Source of the DNA: Candidatus Magasanikiibacteriota bacterium | GTDB taxonomy: Bacteria > Patescibacteriota > Patescibacteriia > Magasanikbacterales > UBA922 | Assembly: GCA_003482855.1 (NCBI GenBank) | Contig: DMXO01000005.1 | Coordinates: forward strand, 227,719 to 291,718 | Direction: 5' to 3' | DNA length: 64,000 nucleotides | Shown here: positions 15,876 through 51,431 of the stretch, in pieces | Layout of the letters: each line of letters opens with the position of its first letter | How positions within the stretch are numbered: the stretch's first letter is position 1 | The notes under the pieces: generated by a model | What the model was told of the DNA's origin: nothing | Databases searched by the model: none | The model's input: the letters and a program-made list of their open reading frames with translations, nothing else | Program-made: the position numbers and the translations under genes

Positions 15876-16451
15876 ATGACTTTGCAGACGAATTATCTGA
15901 AAAAAGTAGGCAACGATTTGCTTGATTTTGCCACCAAGCGCCGTGATATAATCAAACAGACAGGAGATGCACTTCATTTTTCTAAACGCGCTATATTTGC
16001 CATGCACAGAGATGACATGAAAGAAGCAGGAATCAAGCTGAAAGAAGCAGAAAAAATATTTAAAGATTTGAACAAGAAATATGCTAGAGATGCTCGTGTC
16101 CAAGAAGAGGGTTCATACAAAGCAGGACTTGAAGAGTATGTGGAAGCAGTATTGTTGCATCAATTTCTGAATACGGGGAAAATAGGAGAAATAAAAGGGC
16201 TGCCTATCTCAGGAGAAAGTTATGTCGCAGGACTCTGTGACGTGCCTGGAGAGTTGTATCGTTATGCTATCAAATCTGCGACCAGTAGAAATGTAGAAAT
16301 GGTGAAGAGGTGTAATGAAATGGCACAACAAATTACTGGCGAACTCATTGAATTCAATCTGACGAGCTATTTGCGTAATAAATTTGATCAAGCCAAGAGT
16401 GCGGTACAGAAAATTGAGCAGGTGGTGTATGAATTATCTTTAACAAAATAA
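15876..16451 (+). CDS. hypothetical all-alpha protein (possibly translin-like)
   Basis: 191 aa, helical, motif VPGELYRYAI. Assignment tentative. Confidence 0.35.
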   Translation: MTLQTNYLKKVGNDLLDFATKRRDIIKQTGDALHFSKRAIFAMHRDDMKEAGIKLKEAEKIFKDLNKKYARDARVQEEGSYKAGLEEYVEAVLLHQFLNTGKIGEIKGLPISGESYVAGLCDVPGELYRYAIKSATSRNVEMVKRCNEMAQQITGELIEFNLTSYLRNKFDQAKSAVQKIEQVVYELSLTK

Positions 16452-20416: not shown

Positions 20417-21337
20417 TCAACGTAAATTATAGCCAGAAATATTTTTGTATCCGTTCAAGAATGTTTTGATATCCATTTTCGGTTTTCCTTCGAGTTGTAA
20501 TTCAAACACTTGGATTGAAGAATCTTTGGTACCAATGCGGAGTATATCATGTTCTACAATGACTTTGCTAGGAATAATCTGTTTTTGTGTAGGCTTGATA
20601 TCAAGTAATTTCAAACGTTTGTCTCCCCATAATGTCCAAACACCCGGCCATGGCGTGAATGCGCGGAATTGATTATAGATTTCTTGTGATGTTTTATTCC
20701 AATCAATATGTCCATCATCGCGTGAAAGTTGTTTGCATGTGGTAGCTTTTGAATCATCTTGGGGTACTGGGTTCAGTTTGCCTTCAATATACTGTGGAAC
20801 AGCTTCCTCAAGCCCTTGTAAGCCTAGTACAGCGAGCTTTTTATCCAAGTCAGTATAAGTGTCATCTGGATCAATAGTAAGCAGTTTTTGAAGCAAAATA
20901 GGGCCAGTGTCTAGACCAATATCCATTTTCATAATCGTAACGCCTGTCTCATGTTCGCCATTCAAAAGCGCAGATTGGATAGGGGAGGCACCACGATATT
21001 TAGGTAATAGAGACGTATGGACGTTGATAGTACCATGTTGAGGCGCATTTAAAATGTGGGGTGGAATGAGGAGACCATATTGGGCGACGATAAATAGGTC
21101 GTAGGTTTTAGGTTTTAGGTTATAGGTTTTTAAAGATGACGGTTGGCCAATAGAGAGATTATTTTTTTCTGCAAGTAATTTAACAGGAGATGCTTGGAGT
21201 TCTTGTTTGCGACCTACTGGGCGGTCGGGTTGGGTGATGACAATCTCAATATCAAATAAAGGACTGTCGATGAGTCCTTGCAAAATAGTTGTGGCGAAGT
21301 CGTGGGTGCCGAAGAAAATAATTTTCATAATTTTCAA
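20417..21337 (-). CDS. fmt: methionyl-tRNA formyltransferase
   Basis: 306 aa. HTSLLPKYRGASPIQ motif, N- and C-terminal Fmt domains. Contains a 4x AGGTTTT tandem heptamer (21103-21130) encoding KTYNLKPKTYDLF. Confidence 0.9.
   Translation of the reverse strand: MKIMKIIFFGTHDFATTILQGLIDSPLFDIEIVITQPDRPVGRKQELQASPVKLLAEKNNLSIGQPSSLKTYNLKPKTYDLFIVAQYGLLIPPHILNAPQHGTINVHTSLLPKYRGASPIQSALLNGEHETGVTIMKMDIGLDTGPILLQKLLTIDPDDTYTDLDKKLAVLGLQGLEEAVPQYIEGKLNPVPQDDSKATTCKQLSRDDGHIDWNKTSQEIYNQFRAFTPWPGVWTLWGDKRLKLLDIKPTQKQIIPSKVIVEHDILRIGTKDSSIQVFELQLEGKPKMDIKTFLNGYKNISGYNLR
21103..21130. repeat. tandem heptanucleotide repeat (AGGTTTT)x4 inside fmt coding sequence
   Basis: Units aggtttt, aggtttt, aggttat, aggtttt. 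The reading frame is maintained. Confidence 0.7.
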
Positions 21338-26126: not shown

Positions 26127-27658
26127 ATTATATGAAAAAAACTTTTTATATCTCAACAGCAATTCCTTATGTTAATGCAAAGCCTCATATAGGTCATGCT
26201 TTGGAGTATGTACAAACAGATGCACTTGCACGTTATCAGCGACTCCTGGGGAAAGATGTTTTCTTTTTGTCAGGCACGGATGAAAATTCTCTCAAAAATG
26301 TGCAAGCTGCCGAAAAAGCTGGTGTGAGTACAAAAAATTTTGTTGATGAACATTATACATTTTTTTATAATTTTAAAGATGCACTCGACATATCATTTGA
26401 TGACTTCATTCGAACTACGGAACAAAGGCATTTTGATGGTGCACAAAAATTGTGGTCTTTATTCAAAAAAGAAGATGTAGAGAAGCGGGCATACAAGGGA
26501 CTGTATTGTGTAGGTTGTGAAGCATTTTACAAAGAAGATGAACTTGTGGATGGCAAATGCCCTGATCACAAGACAGTGCCAGAAGTTGTTGAAGAGGAAA
26601 ATTGGTTTTTTAAACTTTCTCATTATCAAGATGAACTTAAAAAACTTATAGAAAAAGATATCATAAAGATTACACCTGAATTTCGTAAGAATGAATGGCT
26701 TGCTTTTGTTGATCGGGGACTTGAGGATTTTAGCATTTCACGCTCACAAGAGCGTGCACATGGGTGGGGAGTACCAGTACCCAAGGATGAAGGGCAGATT
26801 ATGTATGTGTGGGTAGATGCGCTCTCAAATTATATTACTGCGCTTAATTTCGCAGACGATGGTGAATTGTACAAAAAATATTGGCAAACATGTGAAGATA
26901 GAGTGCATGTCATTGGCAAAGGCATTGGCAAGTTTCATGTTTTGTATTGGCCAGCGATGTTATTGTCAGCAGGTATTCCATTACCGACAGAAGTATTTAT
27001 CCACGGCTATGTGACAGCAGAAGGGGAGAAGATAAGCAAAAGTCTGGGCAATGTGGTAGATCCCTATGAAGTAGTAGAGAAATATGGTACTGACGCTGTA
27101 CGTTATTATTTGCTCGGGGCTATTTCATCTACACAAGATGGTGATTTTTCTGTAGAACGTTTTGAAGAATTTTATACGGCGCATCTCGTGAATGGGGTGG
27201 GGAATTTGACGAGCAGAATTTTGACCATGTTAGAAAAATATAATGAAAGTATAATATCTGTTGTAAACAAAGAGACTTCAGACTTCAGACTTCAGACTTC
27301 AGACTTCTGGAAAAAGATTGAAGAAACACTACAATATTATAATTTTGAAGAATCAATTCATTCAATAAATAATTTTGTTGCGCAACTAGATGGTATTATT
27401 TCTGAACAAAAACCCTGGGAAAAAGCAAAAAATGGTGAAGACATTTCCGGATTGCTGTATCAGCTTGCAGAAGGTTTACGTCATATTGGTTTAGCCCTCT
27501 TGCCAATTATTCCTCAATCCGCAGAAAAGATTTTGAATCAACTTGGTATACAAGTGAGTGATTTGGAAAATTTAGAAATTGAAAGAGAGTGGGGGAGACT
27601 TGAACCTGAAACAAAAGTGAAGAAGGGAGAATTACTTTTTCAAAGATTGAATAAGTAA
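26123..27658 (+). CDS. metG: methionine--tRNA ligase
   Basis: 511 aa. HIGH motif (PHIGH), KMSKS motif (KISKS), anticodon-binding domain. Contains a 5x AGACTTC heptamer array (27273-27307) encoding ETSDFRLQTSDFW. Confidence 0.9.
   Translation: MNYMKKTFYISTAIPYVNAKPHIGHALEYVQTDALARYQRLLGKDVFFLSGTDENSLKNVQAAEKAGVSTKNFVDEHYTFFYNFKDALDISFDDFIRTTEQRHFDGAQKLWSLFKKEDVEKRAYKGLYCVGCEAFYKEDELVDGKCPDHKTVPEVVEEENWFFKLSHYQDELKKLIEKDIIKITPEFRKNEWLAFVDRGLEDFSISRSQERAHGWGVPVPKDEGQIMYVWVDALSNYITALNFADDGELYKKYWQTCEDRVHVIGKGIGKFHVLYWPAMLLSAGIPLPTEVFIHGYVTAEGEKISKSLGNVVDPYEVVEKYGTDAVRYYLLGAISSTQDGDFSVERFEEFYTAHLVNGVGNLTSRILTMLEKYNESIISVVNKETSDFRLQTSDFWKKIEETLQYYNFEESIHSINNFVAQLDGIISEQKPWEKAKNGEDISGLLYQLAEGLRHIGLALLPIIPQSAEKILNQLGIQVSDLENLEIEREWGRLEPETKVKKGELLFQRLNK
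27273..27307. repeat. tandem heptanucleotide repeat (AGACTTC)x5 inside metG
   Basis: Five perfect units, in frame. Confidence 0.75.
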
Positions 27659-28268: not shown

Positions 28269-30095
28269 ATGTCGTATATAAAAAATATTTTATTGGTTGT
28301 ATCTCTTGTATTGGTGTCTGGTTGTACGACTGGTGGAGATATATCTGGCACATCGTTGGCCTCTCTTGAAGGTAGTCGAGAAAATACGCCATATCAATAT
28401 AGCGCGCCATGGGACAAAGTATTGTATGAAGGATTTTATACACGCATGCAAGGACCTAACAACCCCAATAGTACAGGTGAAATAAAAGGTGGCGTCGTTC
28501 CTCATCATCTTTTAGCAGGCCATATGGCGGCTGCTTTTTTTGATAATTTAGCTCCACAAAATCCATCTACCATTATCATAATTGGTCCGAATCACTTTGG
28601 GCGCGGAGTTGCTGATGTTATTTCTACTCTTCGTGATTGGAAAACACCTTTTGGAGATGTAGAGACAGACACATCGCTTGTTGAAAAACTTGTTAGCAAT
28701 AATATAGTAGTTGTTGATGAGGAAACTATAAAGGAAGAACATTCTTTATATTCCACAATTCCTTTCATAAGACATTCTCTTCCGAATGCAAAAGTTGTTC
28801 CACTTGCATTGCGAAATGATATAGCTACAGAAAAAATGGATGAACTCATAGCTATATTGGCACAGGAGATGCCAAAAGATGCGGTGATTATTTCTTCGAT
28901 TGATTTTTCTCATTACCAGACGCTTCCTGTTGCCAATTTCCATGATGAACTAAGCATGGGGGTTATAAAATCTTTTGATTATGATCGTTTGGAAGATCTT
29001 GAAATTGACTCAGTTCCTAGTCTTTATGTACTTATGAAACTTATGGAGCATTTCAAAGCTCAACATATTTCATATGAAGAACATTCCAACTCAGCTATAG
29101 TTGCTGATACCCCAGATGAGAAATTGACAACAAGCTATTATATACCATATTTTACGTACGGTGATCCAACTAATAAGCGTGTAGCAAGTATTTTGCATTT
29201 TGGTGACATGATGCTTGATCGTAATGTAAAGAAACGCATAGATATGTATGGTACTGATCATGTACTAGGACAATTGGCTGGCGAGGAACTTAGATTTTTC
29301 AAAGGTATGGATGTGATTGGTGCAAATTTAGAAGGTCCTTTTGCAGATTCACGTCGTGACACGACAAAAGAAATAGCATTTCGATTTGATCCGGCTCTTA
29401 TTCCTATGTTGCAGAAATATAATCTTTCATTATTTACTATTGCCAATAACCATACACTTGATATGGGTTGGCAAGGGTTTGAAGAATCAAAGAAAAATTT
29501 ATCCGATGCAGGAATTGAGTATTATGGGCATGAATTGAGAGTGACACAAGAAGACTCAGTATTGTATAAAGAGATTGGTGGACTTAAGTTTGGTTTTATT
29601 GGCGTGGATGATACTATTTTGAAACTTGATGTAAGTATTATAAAGCAATTGATTGAAGAATCTGAAAAAAATAATGATTATACTATTGTCAATATACATT
29701 GGGGAGCTGAATATGGAGTGCTTAATTCAAATGCAAGGCAACAATATCTTGCACATGAGATGATCGATGCTGGCGCAGATGTTATTATTGGCAATCATCC
29801 ACACGTCGTGCAAGAGATAGAGATGTATCACGATAGACCGATATTTTATTCTCTTGGTAATTTTATATTTGATCAATATTTTTCTATCCCTACACAGCAG
29901 ACAATAGGTGTTGGACTTGTATTCCAAGATACAGATAGCCTCAATATACATATATTTCCTATAGAAGCAGAAGATAGTCGCAATCAGCTTATGGACCACG
30001 AAGCGTCTCGGGCTTTTCTCAAACAACTGGTTGCATCAAGTCGTCTAGGCGACTATACTATGGATAATAATACATTACATATATCTTTTAATTAA
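28269..30095 (+). CDS. lipoprotein: MEMO-like (extradiol-dioxygenase-class-III-like) N-domain fused to CapA/PgsA-type metallophosphatase domain
   Basis: 608 aa. Lipobox LVSGC. N-domain VPHHLLAGHM..IIGPNHFG..SIDFSHY. C-domain GANLEGPF..ANNHTLD..NIHWGAEY..GNHPHVVQ..SLGNFIFD (CapA signature). Confidence 0.6.
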   Translation: MSYIKNILLVVSLVLVSGCTTGGDISGTSLASLEGSRENTPYQYSAPWDKVLYEGFYTRMQGPNNPNSTGEIKGGVVPHHLLAGHMAAAFFDNLAPQNPSTIIIIGPNHFGRGVADVISTLRDWKTPFGDVETDTSLVEKLVSNNIVVVDEETIKEEHSLYSTIPFIRHSLPNAKVVPLALRNDIATEKMDELIAILAQEMPKDAVIISSIDFSHYQTLPVANFHDELSMGVIKSFDYDRLEDLEIDSVPSLYVLMKLMEHFKAQHISYEEHSNSAIVADTPDEKLTTSYYIPYFTYGDPTNKRVASILHFGDMMLDRNVKKRIDMYGTDHVLGQLAGEELRFFKGMDVIGANLEGPFADSRRDTTKEIAFRFDPALIPMLQKYNLSLFTIANNHTLDMGWQGFEESKKNLSDAGIEYYGHELRVTQEDSVLYKEIGGLKFGFIGVDDTILKLDVSIIKQLIEESEKNNDYTIVNIHWGAEYGVLNSNARQQYLAHEMIDAGADVIIGNHPHVVQEIEMYHDRPIFYSLGNFIFDQYFSIPTQQTIGVGLVFQDTDSLNIHIFPIEAEDSRNQLMDHEASRAFLKQLVASSRLGDYTMDNNTLHISFN

Positions 30096-30100
30096 ATTAT

Positions 30101-32101
30101 ATGGAAGAAGAAAAACAATCTATACCGGAAGTGCCGCAGCCAAATGGTTCCGTATTTTCAAAAACACAAGTAGTACTATATGGAGCAGTAGCTCTTGTGG
30201 GGATAGCTGCCATCGCGTCTTTTGTCACATTTTTTTTGTTTAGGAATCAACAAGGTGCGCGTGAGGTCGGTGAGTTGCCTCGCGGACAAGATGTGGAACG
30301 TGATATATATGACGCATTAGAAAATATACCGACAAAGACTCCAGATCCAAATGAAGTCCTATACCTCCATACCAATTCTTTTTTTGCCGCATATACTGAG
30401 ACCTTGAATGGAAGAAGAAATTTTACTCCATCGCTTGAAGACAATAAAATTAAAATTACATGGTATAAAGGTGCGCACGCTATTGGCCCAGAAATGCAAG
30501 CTATCTTGGATGAAAAGACAAAGGATATAGAAAAGAGCGATGATGGATACGGACATTTTTATATGTATACCGCAGGTGTCGTCTCATCCCCAGATAGACT
30601 TGCGGGGAAGAATGTATATCTCATTTCCGAAGGTTCTGGTGGCATGGGTATATATTTTAGTGCGGATTTTGCTTTATTTGACGAAGTTTTACATGAATTT
30701 ATTTATTTAGAAAAATCAGGATCGTCTGTCTGTGATCAGTCACTACTGTGCAAGAGTTTTGTTGTACAAGATTTTTCTGAGCTCACTCCTCCCGATGTCT
30801 TGGATATACCGAATGAAGATTCTCTACTTGCACATACGAATGTGTATATAAAAAGAGAAGATGAAGAATCCGCGGCTCCTGTCTTTGATAGTCTTGGTGC
30901 TGCAAATAATCATGGGGGTATTGTGGATGTACAGACTGGTGAATTGGTTAGTATACCTGCGGCATCTGCTGTAGTATTTACTGATCCTATATATGGGCCA
31001 GTATATAGAAAAGGCAAACAGTTTGCTATTGTTCTTCCTGATGGCGCAATGCATTTGTATGATCTTGTTCCTGACTTTTTTGCTGTGGAAGAAATAAAAG
31101 CACAGAAAGAGATGTACGATGTACAATCAAAATTAAGTGTACAATGGATTCCAAAGTATAACACAACAGATGCGTATGTACCTTCAGGAGATATTGTACA
31201 TTTTTGTGGGAGGAGTATTGGTGGATTTCCCAATATTGTGACACAAAAAGATTGGTTCAAAAATCAAGAATTAATAAAAATAGGTGAGACTAATCATGGA
31301 GATGGTGTCTACACTATGAAGAACCCGGAAAATAATACATATTACAAAGATGTATTTGATATAGGATATCAAGGTTCAAAAGTGCTTGCGTCAAATAACA
31401 CTTGGGATGAAGAAAAACAAATTGCATTTGACGCAAAATCTGAGACTGAGAGGTACGCTGATTTTCTTTCGGATAATCCTATCATCTTTTGGCAAGATCA
31501 CTGGGGAGATTGGCGAGCTTATCGTAAAGCGAAATATCAGACACTTGCCGAATGTGCAAAACCGGTAATTTATTTATATCCAGAGAATGAAATGGATGTC
31601 CGTGTGCAAGTAAATCCAGAAGGTGGATTCAAGTATACTGATCCTGCGTATGGTGATGAAGGGTGGTTTGTCCGAGCAACTCCAAAAGGAGAAATAAAAA
31701 ATCTTGCTGACGGGATATCGTATGAATATCTCTTTTGGGAAGGATATGAGTACAATTATGAGATACCATGTTATGGATTTGTAATGAGTAGAGAAGATGT
31801 ACCAACAAAGATGTATATGCTTCTTTCACAACTTGGGTTGAATGAACGTGAGTCAGCAGACTTCATGGATTTTTGGCAAGAAAAATTGGTTGCTAAACCT
31901 TATGTGTACGTGACATTTGTGTCGCAACAGGTTTTTGATGATATCGCACCACTCACTGTAGAACCACAGCCTGACTCTATTATACGTGTATTTATGGATT
32001 ATCAGCCATTGGATTATCCTATGTATGTTTCAGAACCTATTATAAAAACGCCTGAACGTATAGGATTTACCGTTGTTGAGTGGGGTGGACGGTTGAGGTA
32101 A
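30101..32101 (+). CDS. hypothetical membrane-anchored extracytoplasmic protein
   Basis: 666 aa. Single N-terminal TM helix (residues ~24-46). No recognisable motifs. Confidence 0.5.
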   Translation: MEEEKQSIPEVPQPNGSVFSKTQVVLYGAVALVGIAAIASFVTFFLFRNQQGAREVGELPRGQDVERDIYDALENIPTKTPDPNEVLYLHTNSFFAAYTETLNGRRNFTPSLEDNKIKITWYKGAHAIGPEMQAILDEKTKDIEKSDDGYGHFYMYTAGVVSSPDRLAGKNVYLISEGSGGMGIYFSADFALFDEVLHEFIYLEKSGSSVCDQSLLCKSFVVQDFSELTPPDVLDIPNEDSLLAHTNVYIKREDEESAAPVFDSLGAANNHGGIVDVQTGELVSIPAASAVVFTDPIYGPVYRKGKQFAIVLPDGAMHLYDLVPDFFAVEEIKAQKEMYDVQSKLSVQWIPKYNTTDAYVPSGDIVHFCGRSIGGFPNIVTQKDWFKNQELIKIGETNHGDGVYTMKNPENNTYYKDVFDIGYQGSKVLASNNTWDEEKQIAFDAKSETERYADFLSDNPIIFWQDHWGDWRAYRKAKYQTLAECAKPVIYLYPENEMDVRVQVNPEGGFKYTDPAYGDEGWFVRATPKGEIKNLADGISYEYLFWEGYEYNYEIPCYGFVMSREDVPTKMYMLLSQLGLNERESADFMDFWQEKLVAKPYVYVTFVSQQVFDDIAPLTVEPQPDSIIRVFMDYQPLDYPMYVSEPIIKTPERIGFTVVEWGGRLR

Positions 32102-32104
32102 ATT

Positions 32105-32962
32105 ATGATTATTGATTCACATTGTCATCTACATTTCGATAGTTTCAAGAGCGATCGCGATCAAGTGATCGCTTCTTGTATTGAACATGGTGTAATCATA
32201 AATACCGTGGGTACTCATAGTGGTACAAGTAAACGCGCAGTCGAGTTGGCAGAAAAAAATGAAAATATGTATGCGACGATAGGACTTCATCCCACACATG
32301 TTTTTCCTATGGAAGTACATGGAGATGAATATGATTTCATTTCAAAAGCAGAGACATTTGACGAAGCATATTATGATACGCTTGCTCAATCAGAAAAAGT
32401 TATTGCAGTAGGGGAATGCGGTATAGATTTGTTTCATCTACCTGAAAATAAAAGTACAGAAGAAGTTTTAGAGAAACAAAAAGAAGTATTTTTGAAACAA
32501 GTAGATTTTGCAAACAAATATAATTTACCTCTTGTTATACATGTACGAGACGCGCATGAACAGCTTATACAAATTCTGAAGTCTGAAGTCCGAAGTCCGA
32601 AGTCCGCCGTGGTCCACTGTTACACATCAAACTGGGGAAATGCTGGAAAATATTTAGATATGGGTTTTTATCTAGGATTTACTGGGGTCATTACATTTCC
32701 ACCAAAAAAAACTGACCCTAAATCTCAAGAAGATCTAATAGAAGTTGTAAAAAAATGTCCTTTGAACAGAATGCTTATCGAAACTGACGCGCCTTATCTA
32801 GCACCTCAGGCATATCGTGGGCAACGTTGTGAACCCTGGATGGTAGAAGATGTAATAAAAAAAATAGCTGAGATTAGAGGAAAAACACTAGACGAAATAA
32901 AAAATATACTATATCAAAATACGTTAAACTTATTCACAAGAATGAAATTAAAAGATAGTTGA
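32105..32962 (+). CDS. tatD: TatD family metal-dependent hydrolase (DNase)
   Basis: 285 aa. IDSHCHL, GECGIDL, HVRDAH and ETDAPYL motifs. Contains a (GAAGTCY)x4-5 heptamer array at 32576-32610, the reverse complement of the metG heptamer. Confidence 0.85.
   Translation: MIIDSHCHLHFDSFKSDRDQVIASCIEHGVIINTVGTHSGTSKRAVELAEKNENMYATIGLHPTHVFPMEVHGDEYDFISKAETFDEAYYDTLAQSEKVIAVGECGIDLFHLPENKSTEEVLEKQKEVFLKQVDFANKYNLPLVIHVRDAHEQLIQILKSEVRSPKSAVVHCYTSNWGNAGKYLDMGFYLGFTGVITFPPKKTDPKSQEDLIEVVKKCPLNRMLIETDAPYLAPQAYRGQRCEPWMVEDVIKKIAEIRGKTLDEIKNILYQNTLNLFTRMKLKDS
32576..32610. repeat. tandem heptanucleotide repeat (CTGAAGT/CCGAAGT)x5 inside tatD; reverse complement of the metG repeat unit
   Basis: Units ctgaagt, ctgaagt, ccgaagt, ccgaagt, ccgccgt. 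RC is GACTTCA/GACTTCG, a circular permutation of AGACTTC. Confidence 0.7.
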
Positions 32963-34563: not shown

Positions 34564-34617
34564 AGATATTGGAATATTCAGATATTAGGATGTTTGATAT
34601 CCTAATATCCAATATCT
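34564..34617 (+). promoter_or_regulatory. long nested AT-rich hairpin between atpE and atpF
   Basis: AGATATTG...GATATTAGGAT-gtttg-ATCCTAATATC...CAATATCT. 8-bp outer and 11-bp inner stems. Confidence 0.45.
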
Positions 34618-34631
34618 TAATATCAAAATAT

Positions 34632-46663: not shown

Positions 46664-47614
46664 ATGCGTCTACGATACATGTATGTGTGGGGTATCTCTC
46701 TTTTGGGAGGATTATTAATGCTTGGTGCCGCATGCAGCCCAACAGCACCTGTTGAGGAACAAAATGCCAAACCTGAAACAGGCGGTGGCCAAGCTTGTAG
46801 CTACTATGTAAACGGAGTACAACAAAACTGGCGTTGTGAAAACGATCAGTGGTGTGGAACACAGTCTGGTGATTGTAGAGATGTACCATTTTGTAATGCA
46901 AATACTGATTGTACTACAAATCAAGTTTGTGTAAATGGGTATTGTGGACCTTCACAACAAACTAATCAGCAGGGCTCACCTTGCAGTTCAAATGAGCAGT
47001 GTATTTCAGGTAAATTATGTTCAAATGGTGTCTGCGTTCCTGCAGAACAAGTACTTCCATCTGATCCAAACACTGGCGAATTGCTTTGTAACTCAGATGC
47101 ACAGTGTTGGAATGGAAAAGTGTGTGTGGATAGCCATTGTGTAGTACCCACAACTCCCACAAGTGGGATAGGGTCTTCTTGTACTTCAGATGGTCAGTGT
47201 GGTACAGGAGTTGCTTGTTTTCAAGGGCGTTGTACCTCAGTTCCATCAAGTTGTAATTATCATCCTGAGTGTTTGAGCGATAATTTTGTGTGTTCAAATC
47301 ATACCTGCGTATGGCCTGGTCAAAGTGGACATACATGTAGTAACACAGATGGAGATAGATGGCATTGTCTGAATGCCCAGGCATGTGGAGGAGCATTAAA
47401 TGAATGTTTAACGCCAGGCTCGCCAACTCCCATTACTGAAATAAACTGTGCAAATGATAGCGACTGTGGAACGGGGAATAAATGTAATGGTTTCACTTGT
47501 TATACGCCACTTTACAATCCTTCTTCATGTACAACAGATGCACAGTGTGTAGAAAAGATGTCATTTTGCCAAAATAATGTATGTATCTTTGCCCCGGGAG
47601 GTAATGCGGATTGA
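46664..47614 (+). CDS. cysteine-rich lipoprotein with ~8 tandem 4-Cys modules (C-x4-[QED]C-x4-5-C-x3-C)
   Basis: 316 aa. Signal peptide with lipobox-like LMLGAAC. About 50 Cys. Module repeated, e.g. SPCSSNEQCISGKLCSNGVCVP, LLCNSDAQCWNGKVCVDSHCVVP, SSCTSDGQCGTGVACFQGRCTSV. Confidence 0.6.
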   Translation: MRLRYMYVWGISLLGGLLMLGAACSPTAPVEEQNAKPETGGGQACSYYVNGVQQNWRCENDQWCGTQSGDCRDVPFCNANTDCTTNQVCVNGYCGPSQQTNQQGSPCSSNEQCISGKLCSNGVCVPAEQVLPSDPNTGELLCNSDAQCWNGKVCVDSHCVVPTTPTSGIGSSCTSDGQCGTGVACFQGRCTSVPSSCNYHPECLSDNFVCSNHTCVWPGQSGHTCSNTDGDRWHCLNAQACGGALNECLTPGSPTPITEINCANDSDCGTGNKCNGFTCYTPLYNPSSCTTDAQCVEKMSFCQNNVCIFAPGGNAD

Positions 47615-47881: not shown

Positions 47882-48427
47882 ATGGATTCAATTATGCACC
47901 CATATATACCTATAGTACTTGGAACTGCTCGAAAAGGGCGGCAATCTGAGCATGTGGCACAATATATATACAACACACTCAAAAACAATAAAGAGGCTAT
48001 TTTTGAGCTTGTGGATGTGCGTAATTACCTTGTCGAATCTCGAACTATACCTCCGTGGGAAAACAGTAACATAGCCAAACCATGGCGAGACATTGTAGCA
48101 AAATCTTCAGCTTTTATTTTTGTTGTGCCTGAATATAATAGAGGTTATCCAGGAGAATTCAAGATGTTGCTCGATCAGGAGTTTAAAGGATATAACAAGA
48201 AACCTGCACTGATAGTAAGCGTTTCATCCGGTGGCTTCGGTGGTGTACGAATGGCTGAACATTTAATTCCCACATTACGATATATGGGGTTTCATCTTTT
48301 ATCTCAAGATATACAAGTACCAAAGGTAGAAGAGTTTGTGAAAATGAGTATGGAAGAAAAAGATCAAACACTGAAAGAGAAGATAGAGAAAATGGTAGAT
48401 GCCCTTATAGAAAAAAAGAATGACTAA
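47882..48427 (+). CDS. NADPH-dependent FMN reductase family flavoprotein
   Basis: Start reassigned to ATG 47882 (MDSIMHPYIPIVLGTARKGRQSEH). Flavodoxin-like; AFIFVVPEYNRGYPGEFK motif. Confidence 0.7.
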   Translation: MDSIMHPYIPIVLGTARKGRQSEHVAQYIYNTLKNNKEAIFELVDVRNYLVESRTIPPWENSNIAKPWRDIVAKSSAFIFVVPEYNRGYPGEFKMLLDQEFKGYNKKPALIVSVSSGGFGGVRMAEHLIPTLRYMGFHLLSQDIQVPKVEEFVKMSMEEKDQTLKEKIEKMVDALIEKKND

Positions 48428-51400
48428 CTATAATCTCAACGTATCCCAGAAGCAGGCTATCGAATATACCGACGGCCCGCTTTTGATTATTGCTGGGGCT
48501 GGTACAGGCAAGACAACAGTTATTACTCAAAAAATAGCTTATTTAATAGAACAAAAGTTTGCCACGCCTGAGCAAATTTTGGCATTAACGTTTACTGACA
48601 AGGCGGCTGGAGAAATGCAAGGACGTGTAGATGAAATGATGGATATAGGTTATGTAGATTTACAGATTTCTACATTTCATGCATTTTGTCAAAGGCTCCT
48701 TGAGGAATACGGTTTGGAAATTGGATTACCAAATAAATTCAAATTACTAACGCTGACAGATGCATGGCTTCTTATGCGAGAGCATGTTTACGATTTTAAT
48801 TTGGATTATTATAGACCACTCGGCAATCCAAATAAACACATCCATACTCTCCTTGACCATTTTTCAAAATGTAAAGACGAGCTTGTTTCTCCAAAAAGTT
48901 ATATAGAATACGCAGAAGGTTTGGCAATGGATAGTGATAGCGCGCAAATTTTGGAAAAAAATAAAACAGTCGAACTCGCGCATGCGTATCATCAGTATAA
49001 CCAGCTATTACTCGATAAAGAATCTCTTGATTTTGGGGATATTATCTTTTACTGTGTGAAACTCTTACAAGAACGCCCAAATATATTGAAACTCTTACAA
49101 GAACGTTTTAAATATATTCTCATAGATGAATTTCAGGATGTCAATTGGGCACAATATCAACTTATAAGATTATTAGCCAATAAAAATTCACAATTGACAG
49201 TGGTGGGGGATGATGATCAGAGTATTTATGCATTTCGTGGAAGTAATGTGTCTATTATCATGCGATTTAAGGAAGATTATCCAGATGCAAAAGAGATTGT
49301 ATTGACGGAAAATTATCGTTCAAAGCAAGAAATTCTTGATTTTGCATATGCATCCATTCAAAATAATAATCCAGACCGTCTAGAGCAAAAATTGGGTGTA
49401 AATAAGAAACTTCTGAGTGGAGTTCAAGTAGAAAAAATAAAGAGTCAAAAAAATGTCGAGCATCTACATTTTCAGACACTTGATGATGAAGTGGTTGGTG
49501 TAATCAAAAAAATTAGTGAAATCAAAGAACAATCCAGGTTAGTATCTTGGGATGACTTTGCAATCTTAGTTCGGGCAAATAGCCATGTAGAGCCATTTGC
49601 CAATGCGCTCGAATCTCATAATATCCCATATGAATATCTTGCTTCGTCAGGGCTATATCGCCAGCCGATTGTGCTTGATGCTATCGGCTTTCTTAATAGT
49701 ATTGAACATATTCATGACGATAGAGCCATATACCGGCTCTTACGCATGCCATTCTTACAAATGAAAGAGGATGACTTACAAAAATTGACTGCCATGGCGA
49801 AGAAAAAAAGTATAGCATATTATGAGGCACTGAAGCGGTCAAGAGAATTTTATCTTTCGATGGAAGGTACAAATGTGTGTGAAAAACTTATCAGTCTCTT
49901 TCATGAGGGGATGAGACATTCACGATTCGAAAAACCAACAAGCGTACTGTATCAATTTTTGGAAAATAGTGGGTATCTTTCATATCTCACTCATGAAGAA
50001 GGACGGGGAAATAAAGAAATTATTAGACAAATCCATCATCTTAAACAGCTTTTTGATCTTATACGAAATTATGAAGAAGTAATGCCTGGTGCCCATGTAG
50101 CAGGATTTGTAGAGCACTATAACTATATTATAGAATCCGGCGACGGTGGTAAGATGTACCAGCCGACAGATACTCCTAATTCAGTAAATATCTTGACAGT
50201 TCATGCGGCAAAGGGTCTGGAATTTAAATATGTGTTTGTTGTTAATTTGGTAGAAGAAAGATTTCCAAGTAGAAATAGAGGTGGCGATATAGAATTACCT
50301 GATGAATTAGTAAAAGAATTATCAAATGGGGGTCACAATTTCCATTATCAAGAAGAACGCAGACTATTTTATGTGGCAATTACACGTGCAAAAGAAAAAT
50401 TATTTTTGACAAGTGCCGATGATTATGGCGGCTCACGAAAAAAGAAGATCTCACGATTTTTAGACGAGGTTGGATTTGAAACTAACAAACAACGAACAAC
50501 GAACAACGAACAACGGAGCGGACTTCTTAACAAAAAAATATCCTACATTTCTGCCTTGCCGGCAGGCAGACAATATCCAATATCTTCCAAGACAAGGAAT
50601 CAAAGTAACGAATTACCAAAAATTATTCAAGATACCTTCTCCTACTCTCAGATCAATTCGTATGAACGTTGTCCCTATCAGTATAAATTAGCGCATGTAC
50701 TTAAAATTCCAATGAAAGGTAGTGCAAGCTTTAGTTTTGGCAACACGATACACAATACATTGCAAACATTTTATGAACGTATCCAAGAGCTTAATAGAGC
50801 AAAACAGAGCAGTCTGTTTGGTTTGCCTGTAGAAGCACCGCGTATTAAAGGTGATGGAATACAGGTACCAACATTGGAAGAGTTGCTCGATGATTACGAG
50901 AAGGCGTGGATTCCCGATTGGTACAAAAGCAAACAACAGCGAGAGAGTTATTACCAAAAAGGTAAAGAAATTTTGAAAGTATTTTATGCCTCAGAGCAAA
51001 ACTCCTGGTCAATACCAGTAAGCCTTGAAGGTTGGTTCAAAATAAAAGTAGGGGAGTACCTTGTCAATGGACGTATTGATCGTATAGACAAACAATTAGA
51101 CGGCAGTTTAGAAATTATTGACTACAAAACAGGGTCAGCGAAGGAAACTCTCACAAGTGAAGATAAACAGCAACTTATCATATATCAGATTGCTGCCCAA
51201 TCATTATCAGAGTATAACCACATAGGACCTGTAGGTAAACTTACATTTTATTATGTCAATGACAACATAAAAACTTCATTTTTGGGAGAAAACAAGGATA
51301 TAGAAAAATTAAAAGGAAAATTAATTAATGTTATTACTCAAATTCAAGGGGGCGACTTCGCTGCTACGCCAGGTAAACATGTGTGCGCGTACTGTGATTT

Positions 51401-51431
51401 CAAAGAAATTTGTGAATTTAGGCAATTATAA
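48420..51431 (+). CDS. UvrD/PcrA-family helicase fused to a C-terminal PD-(D/E)xK nuclease with Cys cluster (AddA/RecB-like)
   Basis: 1003 aa. Helicase motif I AGAGTGKTTV. C-terminal DGSLEIIDYKTG and CAYCDFKEIC. Contains an (AACGAAC)x3-5 heptamer array at 50484-50518. Confidence 0.8.
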   Translation: MTNYNLNVSQKQAIEYTDGPLLIIAGAGTGKTTVITQKIAYLIEQKFATPEQILALTFTDKAAGEMQGRVDEMMDIGYVDLQISTFHAFCQRLLEEYGLEIGLPNKFKLLTLTDAWLLMREHVYDFNLDYYRPLGNPNKHIHTLLDHFSKCKDELVSPKSYIEYAEGLAMDSDSAQILEKNKTVELAHAYHQYNQLLLDKESLDFGDIIFYCVKLLQERPNILKLLQERFKYILIDEFQDVNWAQYQLIRLLANKNSQLTVVGDDDQSIYAFRGSNVSIIMRFKEDYPDAKEIVLTENYRSKQEILDFAYASIQNNNPDRLEQKLGVNKKLLSGVQVEKIKSQKNVEHLHFQTLDDEVVGVIKKISEIKEQSRLVSWDDFAILVRANSHVEPFANALESHNIPYEYLASSGLYRQPIVLDAIGFLNSIEHIHDDRAIYRLLRMPFLQMKEDDLQKLTAMAKKKSIAYYEALKRSREFYLSMEGTNVCEKLISLFHEGMRHSRFEKPTSVLYQFLENSGYLSYLTHEEGRGNKEIIRQIHHLKQLFDLIRNYEEVMPGAHVAGFVEHYNYIIESGDGGKMYQPTDTPNSVNILTVHAAKGLEFKYVFVVNLVEERFPSRNRGGDIELPDELVKELSNGGHNFHYQEERRLFYVAITRAKEKLFLTSADDYGGSRKKKISRFLDEVGFETNKQRTTNNEQRSGLLNKKISYISALPAGRQYPISSKTRNQSNELPKIIQDTFSYSQINSYERCPYQYKLAHVLKIPMKGSASFSFGNTIHNTLQTFYERIQELNRAKQSSLFGLPVEAPRIKGDGIQVPTLEELLDDYEKAWIPDWYKSKQQRESYYQKGKEILKVFYASEQNSWSIPVSLEGWFKIKVGEYLVNGRIDRIDKQLDGSLEIIDYKTGSAKETLTSEDKQQLIIYQIAAQSLSEYNHIGPVGKLTFYYVNDNIKTSFLGENKDIEKLKGKLINVITQIQGGDFAATPGKHVCAYCDFKEICEFRQL
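50484..50518. repeat. tandem heptanucleotide repeat (AACGAAC)x3 perfect plus 2 degenerate, inside the helicase gene
   Basis: Units aacaaac, aacgaac x3, aacggag. Encodes TNKQRTTNNEQRSG, in frame. Confidence 0.7.

Follow-up and report, generated by a model that had tools for sequence, protein, structure and literature searches.

A GACTTCA heptanucleotide unit recurs in frame in tatD, metG and gltX of a Magasanikbacteria genome

The tatD gene of this Candidatus Magasanikiibacteriota genome contains, within its coding sequence, a tandem array of seven-base units whose reverse complement is repeated in metG, an unrelated gene nearby. How could the same heptamer come to lie in opposite orientations in two unrelated genes? 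We addressed this question in the 64,000-nucleotide stretch of DNA that includes both genes (hereafter, the window), in 10 kb of sequence on each side of it, and in alignments with orthologues that lack the arrays. The best reading of the results is that the tracts in metG, tatD and a third gene, gltX, form one genome-specific heptanucleotide microsatellite family with the unit GACTTCA.

Two CTGAAGT units, two CCGAAGT units and a degenerate CCGCCGT make up the tatD array (positions 32576–32610, forward strand), which runs antisense to the family unit GACTTCR, is read in frame as L-KSEVRSPKSAV and encodes LKSEVRSPKSAV. Its host gene (32105–32962, forward strand) specifies a TatD-family hydrolase of 285 amino acids (Pfam PF01026, TatD_DNase, E=3e-75). 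The metG array (27273–27307, forward strand) comprises five perfect copies of AGACTTC, the sense of the family unit, and encodes (E)TSDFRLQTSDF(W). It is situated between the catalytic-domain and anticodon-domain Pfam hits of a 508-amino-acid methionyl-tRNA synthetase (26132–27658, forward strand). Tandem Repeats Finder returned both tracts with period 7: 4.1 copies with 95% matches at 32578–32606 in tatD, and 5.0 copies with 100% matches at 27273–27307 in metG. The exact runs agree, and both tracts have the three or more tandem head-to-tail copies that define the long simple sequence repeats (LSSR) of bacteria. Rotating the metG unit gives GACTTCA, whose reverse complement is precisely the TGAAGTC found in tatD. 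The first two tatD units are thus the exact reverse complement of the metG unit, while in the last two full units the T is replaced by C. The first-pass annotation had described the tatD array and its reverse-complement relation to metG at a distance of about 5 kb, and both descriptions proved accurate, the spacing being 5.3 kb.

The arrays are the same in independent assemblies of several samples made with different assemblers, with intact open reading frames (ORFs). The TatD protein is identical on 23 contigs and is represented at NCBI by OGH90965.1, from Candidatus Magasanikbacteria RIFOXYC2_FULL_39_8, a groundwater member of the CPR; metG has five copies of its unit in four of four assemblies. 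No copy-number variants of the array proteins were found in 90% protein clusters. One observation hints at an assembly or sequencing artefact: in two independent Logan assemblies (SRR6488198 and SRR3989339), the contigs L002 and L004 start at window position 27278, inside the metG array. This shared start could reflect copy-number heterogeneity, or k-mers common to the GACTTCA arrays of other organisms. Given the agreement among samples and assemblers, we regard the probability of an artefact as negligible.

We searched for further GACTTCA arrays, in either orientation, in the window together with its two 10-kb extensions, 82.4 kb in all. This check, which the first-pass annotation had proposed, revealed a third array in gltX, the glutamyl-tRNA synthetase gene, 9.4 kb past the end of the window (L388:20706–20731; 73367–73392 in extended coordinates). 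It contains 3.7 copies of GACTTCA in sense orientation (AAGTCTGAAGTCTGAAGTCTGAAGTC) and encodes GLQTSDFRLA. Five heptamer arrays are present in the 82.4 kb, and the gltX array brings to three of five (metG, tatD and gltX) those that share a unit. Among 25 unascertained arrays from other sequences, only 1 pair in 300 collided in unit class, so the probability that three of five arrays share one class by chance is about 0.001 or less. The relatives contain a single GACTTCA-unit array in 811 kb, in the tatD gene of L130. Within the 82 kb, no two-copy seed of the unit was found elsewhere, and single copies of GACTTCA outside the arrays are not enriched. A common origin of the unit is therefore supported, as the first-pass annotation had argued in preferring a common mobile or templated origin to independent slippage; the mobile element that formed part of that proposal did not find support, as described below. 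The shared unit implies copying between loci. The direction of any such copying is constrained in one respect: the extra tatD units are of the C type and the metG and gltX units of the T type, and pure T-type units in tatD would give TGA, which rules out that the metG units were copied into tatD.

The remaining two arrays have other units. In fmt, which encodes a methionyl-tRNA formyltransferase of 306 amino acids (20417–21337, reverse strand; Pfam Formyl_trans_N and Formyl_trans_C), the array at 21096–21130 (reverse strand) reads, in the gene's sense, AAAACCT, ATAACCT, AAAACCT, AAAACCT and ACGACCT, and encodes KTYNLKPKTYDL; it belongs to a different unit family. The other is at 50484–50515 (forward strand), in a gene for a 1003-amino-acid UvrD/PcrA-type helicase fused to a PD-(D/E)XK nuclease (48420–51431, forward strand), where 4.6 copies of AACGAAC / GAACAAC encode TNKQRTTNNEQR in the linker between UvrD_C and PDDEXK_1. 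When exact arrays of at least three copies were sought in the window at periods 5 to 15, only period 7 gave any (n=3). A mismatch-tolerant scan found four arrays of period 7 and none at periods 5, 6 and 8–12, and shuffled sequence gave none. All four window arrays (fmt, metG, tatD and the UvrD-type gene) are in frame within housekeeping genes. Period 7 is likewise the sole period with arrays of at least three copies in 752 kb of relatives. These relatives have 4 exact arrays of at least three copies in 752 kb, against 3 in 64 kb here, a density about nine times higher per kb in this genome. The shuffles, together with the unit-collision estimate, rule out a chance origin of the arrays.

Density is uneven across the clade: L200 has two arrays in 4.5 kb and L392 four in 18.7 kb, so heptamer-rich genomes recur within Magasanikbacteria. 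Arrays are located within ORFs in 5 of 5 cases in this genome (82 kb) and in 11 of 12 cases in the Magasanikbacteria sample. The four arrays of the 18.7-kb L392 locus have four different units. One of them, a perfect (AACCCTA)x5 at L392:13355–13389 in this other Rifle Magasanikbacteria genome, is positioned between the ATP synthase delta- and alpha-subunit genes and has as its complement TTTAGGG, the telomere repeat of plant type.

Since 7 and 3 have no common factor, every triplet of a heptamer is read in frame at each third unit; in a pure array, each of the seven overlapping triplets enters the frame once per three units. A unit that contains a stop codon would thus terminate translation if repeated without interruption. 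In three of three arrays built from such units, the repeat is interrupted at the in-frame positions (TAA in fmt, TGA in tatD and TAG in the tatD gene of L200); in tatD, a T-to-C change in the third unit converts TGA to CGA. The units of metG, the UvrD-type gene and gltX are free of stop codons, and their arrays are pure. As read from these sequences, the arrays are shaped by selection that acts on the frame, on stop codons and on the tolerance of the loop.

We then asked how the arrays relate to the codons that orthologues have at the same sites. The first-pass annotation had spoken of an inserted 7-mer, and the comparison with orthologues, which it had also suggested, showed little or no net gain in length. 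The fmt array aligns with the L263 orthologue without gaps and with no change in length, the L263 DNA being weakly period-7 there. In the UvrD-type gene, the relative L266 has, at the same place, a degenerate period-7 tract of equal length, again without gaps; the array region is 83% identical to L266, against 69% for the whole gene. The tatD loop is as long as that of Thermotoga maritima TatD (1J6O), with which it aligns gaplessly, and it exceeds the clade's commonest length by one amino acid and the nearest relative (L265) by four. The gltX array also aligns gaplessly with the glutamyl-tRNA synthetase 6B1Z, with no change. Only the metG loop is longer than the clade baseline, by four amino acids, which is not a multiple of 7 bases and is inside the range of solved methionyl-tRNA synthetase structures. 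None of 120 MetG orthologues has the AGACTTC array, and no proto-repeat was found at the metG site in relatives. The nearest relatives compared are only 66% (TatD) to 77% (MetG) identical. The alignments of fmt, tatD, the UvrD-type gene and gltX rule out simple insertion relative to orthologues. Because the arrays fill loops of normal length, native codons appear to have been overwritten or homogenised, not pushed apart. Simple slippage does not readily explain how 26–35 bases were replaced at no net change in length, since steps of one unit would put essential genes out of frame.

The sites that carry the arrays look permissive. In an AlphaFold2 model of TatD (mean pLDDT 94.9), the array corresponds to the end of helix 151–161 and to loop 162–167, before strand 168–170, and pLDDT is lowered there. 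From general TIM-barrel geometry, we take this helix-to-strand loop to face away from the active site. The UvrD-type array is in an inter-domain linker, as the metG array is between two domain hits. The tatD loop is also a site at which repeats recur. L130, another species, has a GACTTCA-family unit at the same site, where three of three departures from the pure array are synonymous. Because the unit and the site are identical in L130, the tatD array looks old and predates this genome, and we infer that the perfect metG and gltX arrays are young. Other relatives have other units in this loop: (AACTYAG)x6 in L200 and (AAATTAC)x4.7 in L236, with decayed 7-base or 7-amino-acid periodicity in L185, L186, L189, L190, L240 and P0009. 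In L200 and P0009, the loop is longer by exactly seven amino acids, the equivalent of three units. The metG loop of L200 has yet another unit, (AAGTTAC)x4.4, with no change in length. The metG and tatD units of L200 do not qualify as a reverse-complement pair like the one described here, since they agree at only 5 of 7 bases whichever orientation is taken, a match that by our own estimate is not significant. The tatD unit itself emerges from codons of native type. The clade consensus is L-K-S and the nearest relative has E-V-R-G; written with AAG TCT GAA GTC CG., L-K-S-E-V-R gives two units.

Repeats of other types are found at the same loops. Among 77 TatD orthologues, 15 have inserts of 19–34 amino acids at the array loop (L183, L184, L192, L194, L198, L207, L209, L219, L223, L224, L232, L238, L245, L247 and L252), with recurring peptides such as ..IASLPAVARNDI, CHSERSEES and SPILSLTKER. 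In the metG loop of L392:8245, the peptide PSPLLTKEGLGEV is encoded by an inverted repeat, CCCCTCCTT..AAGGAGGGG. The tatD and metG loops thus seem to collect several kinds of repeat element. A perfect palindrome, CTGCCTTGCCGGCAGGCAG, is present at window positions 50551–50569 in the UvrD-type linker, 35 bases past the array, where it encodes ALPAGRQ; it is single-copy in the window and is also present in L266. A PACRQAGQ peptide occupies the tatD loop of the Magasanikbacteria P0022 and P0037. Together, the palindrome and the PACRQAGQ loops suggest a small palindromic element that may land in frame in protein loops.

Outside the clade, GTDB genomes of many phyla contain more than 119 stretches with three tandem copies of GACTTCR. 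Among the matches listed, about half are outside long ORFs; they often adjoin arrays of related units, and a single genome sometimes has several. Five genomes occur twice among the first 80 of the more than 119 matches. In Verrucomicrobiota, Myxococcota, Acidobacteriota and Bacteroidota (L011–L129), many GACTTCR arrays are within a few hundred bases of other heptamer arrays (for example, L016, L027, L074, L086 and L126), whose units differ by one or two bases (AAGCCCG, AAATCCG, GGCCTCG and others). This arrangement suggests that islands and genome-specific families of heptamer arrays may exist in other phyla as well. In viral contigs, GACTTCR arrays numbered 20, against 16 and 16 for two shuffled heptamers and 1 for an octamer control; a hexamer control was swamped by Asp-Ser coding repeats. 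The shuffled controls being equally frequent, no general preference for GACTTCR is shown, and we discarded the idea that it is a universally favoured unit. No paper in the library searched has this repeat string, and a search for papers on heptamer repeats in CPR genomes found none.

Three explanations compete with a microsatellite family that spreads between loci, and each is less well supported. Slippage could have occurred independently at each locus from native proto-repeats, with the identity of the metG, tatD and gltX units a coincidence. The readability of the tatD unit from native-type codons fits this proposal, as do the unrelated units at the tatD and metG loops of other genomes and the viral counts, which speak against a general advantage of the unit. 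We nevertheless consider it unlikely, because three of five arrays belong to one unit class where collisions affect about one pair in 300, because the 82 kb contain no two-copy GACTTCA seed elsewhere, and because the metG relatives have no proto-repeat at the site. A second proposal is insertion of the unit by a mobile or enzyme-templated process, in which GACTTCA would arrive with an element of the MITE type or be added at breaks by an activity akin to reverse transcriptase or telomerase. The presence of the unit in both orientations in unrelated genes is in keeping with such a process, as are the dispersed same-unit arrays within single contigs or genomes of other phyla among the matches listed, and the cross-phylum heptamer families for which the literature offers no known mechanism (PMC4679880). 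Against it, the metG, tatD and gltX arrays have no common flanks, terminal inverted repeats or target duplications; there is zero net gain at fmt, tatD, gltX and the UvrD-type gene, metG alone being longer (by four amino acids); and the tatD array is common to another species at the same site. Moreover, the genes of the window and those called in the 10 kb on either side of it include no reverse transcriptase, transposase or recombinase. The mobile origin put forward in the first-pass annotation is thus very unlikely.

The arrays could also be functional, either as a repeated target for a protein that binds DNA or RNA or as a contingency (phase-variable) switch that reversibly frameshifts its host. 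The recurrence of one specific unit speaks for a function, as do the purely synonymous departures in L130 and the elevated identity of the UvrD-type array region to L266 (83% against 69%); the unit length, as in contingency loci, is not a multiple of three. However, the orientation relative to the transcript differs (sense in metG and gltX, antisense in tatD), most orthologues lack the arrays, and an Rfam search of the arrays gave no family match. None of the hosts is a surface or restriction gene; all are essential housekeeping genes, and the in-frame copy number is the same in every assembly. A function of either kind is therefore quite unlikely, if somewhat less so than insertion by a mobile or templated process.

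Taken together, the evidence leads us to favour, with a confidence somewhat better than even, a genome-specific heptanucleotide microsatellite family in which 7-base slippage or conversion acts under selection on the frame and the unit spreads between loci by templated copying. Tandem repeats in bacterial DNA prefer a 7-base register, and this genome has about nine times the relatives' density of exact arrays. Slipped-strand mispairing or conversion in that register would then expand and homogenise short proto-repeats. The products seen in these genes all keep the frame and are free of stop codons; the arrays thus survive only in tolerant surface loops and linkers, at near-native loop length and with interruptions at each third unit where a stop would otherwise arise. 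The perfect arrays of metG and gltX would be younger than the tatD array, and the shared unit would have spread between loci when short patches were copied from an array already present. For this templated copying, the most economical guess is template switching or ectopic conversion, and no mobile element would be involved. Nor would any function be required: the arrays may be tolerated passengers and, at the same time, frameshift hazards.

A more radical mechanism would be a unit-specific, length-preserving overwriting, in which templated patch synthesis or conversion writes GACTTCA tandems over existing DNA in either orientation. We rate this as improbable. If it were true, only in-frame, stop-free products would be visible in essential genes, and the heptamer families specific to single genomes across bacterial phyla, so far unexplained, would arise from the same process.

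Bacterial heptamer repeat families have been known since 1990, and we know of no explanation for either the preference for period 7 or the spread of one unit within a genome. The excess of heptamers among bacterial repeats is documented (PMC4692102; PMC4679880), and the heptanucleotide class of bacterial LSSR of Mrazek, Guo and Shah (2007), as far as these two papers relate it, resembles the present tracts in its head-to-tail 7-base units, in the over-representation of period 7 among periods that are not multiples of three, in lineage-specific enrichment and in the proposed cause, polymerase slippage. As related there, most published cases lie between genes and vary in length, whereas the arrays described here are all in essential genes, in frame, confined to loops, of about five units and almost without change in length. 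Our tracts are therefore best read as a coding, lineage-specific version of bacterial heptanucleotide microsatellite families. Also comparable are the families specific to single genomes, namely the cyanobacterial STRR and the TAACTGA repeats of marine Beggiatoaceae (PMC4679880), GGGAATC of Xanthomonas and GGGGAYT of Nostoc (PMC4692102), and (GATAGRA)n of Chloroflexus (PMC6749651). In these families, as here, one heptamer forms arrays at scattered places in a genome, in both orientations and beyond chance, without mobile-element features or a known mechanism, and the unit is also found in unrelated phyla. Those families have tens to hundreds of members, mostly intergenic, whereas ours has three in 82 kb, all coding, in a small CPR genome with little intergenic space.

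Systems of other kinds fit less well. The contingency loci of Haemophilus, Neisseria and Mycoplasma also have a repeat in an ORF, with a unit that is not a multiple of three, so that adding or dropping one unit changes the reading frame, but the hosts here are methionyl- and glutamyl-tRNA synthetases, a formyltransferase, a TatD hydrolase and a UvrD-type helicase. Contingency-type OFF or length variants were not seen among 23 tatD contigs, 4 metG assemblies and the 90% protein clusters. MITE- or REP-like insertions differ in that our arrays have no conserved ends, bracketing inverted repeats or target-site duplication, and the filled site is longer only at metG. DNA uptake sequences (the USS of Haemophilus and the DUS of Neisseria) are short motifs that accumulate in genes at poorly conserved positions by length-preserving replacement. 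They are over-represented as singletons, however, whereas single GACTTCA copies are not enriched outside the arrays here.

Since the arrays are in conserved genes, each has alignable orthologous sites without an array. It is these sites that show directly that native codons were replaced, not added to, and that selection sculpts the arrays. They also open a route to reconstructing how an array was born, which intergenic arrays do not provide. Perfect 7-base repeats are possible strain markers as well and, where they lie in tRNA synthetase genes, frameshift hazards to this reduced CPR genome.

Several features of the neighbouring genes deserve mention in their own right. Between cvpA and tatD, window positions 28269–32101 hold a Memo/PGA_cap fusion of 608 amino acids and a 666-amino-acid ORF without a Pfam hit. 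Both of these large genes are missing from the closest syntenic relative, L265, where cvpA is followed by one small gene and then tatD. A 316-amino-acid protein encoded at 46664–47614 has a cysteine-rich domain resembling DUF7107, Dickkopf_N and EB modules, which is unusual for a bacterium. At 15876–16451, the window encodes a member of the Translin family (PF01997, E=7e-23), which is found mainly in eukaryotes and archaea; translin has been reported to bind single-stranded microsatellite and telomeric repeats. Finally, an AT-rich repeat of period 8, with 3.6 copies of ATATCCTA, is present at 34597–34624, at the start of atpF or immediately upstream, and gene callers differ on the atpF start codon (191 or 205 amino acids) across assemblies of identical sequence.
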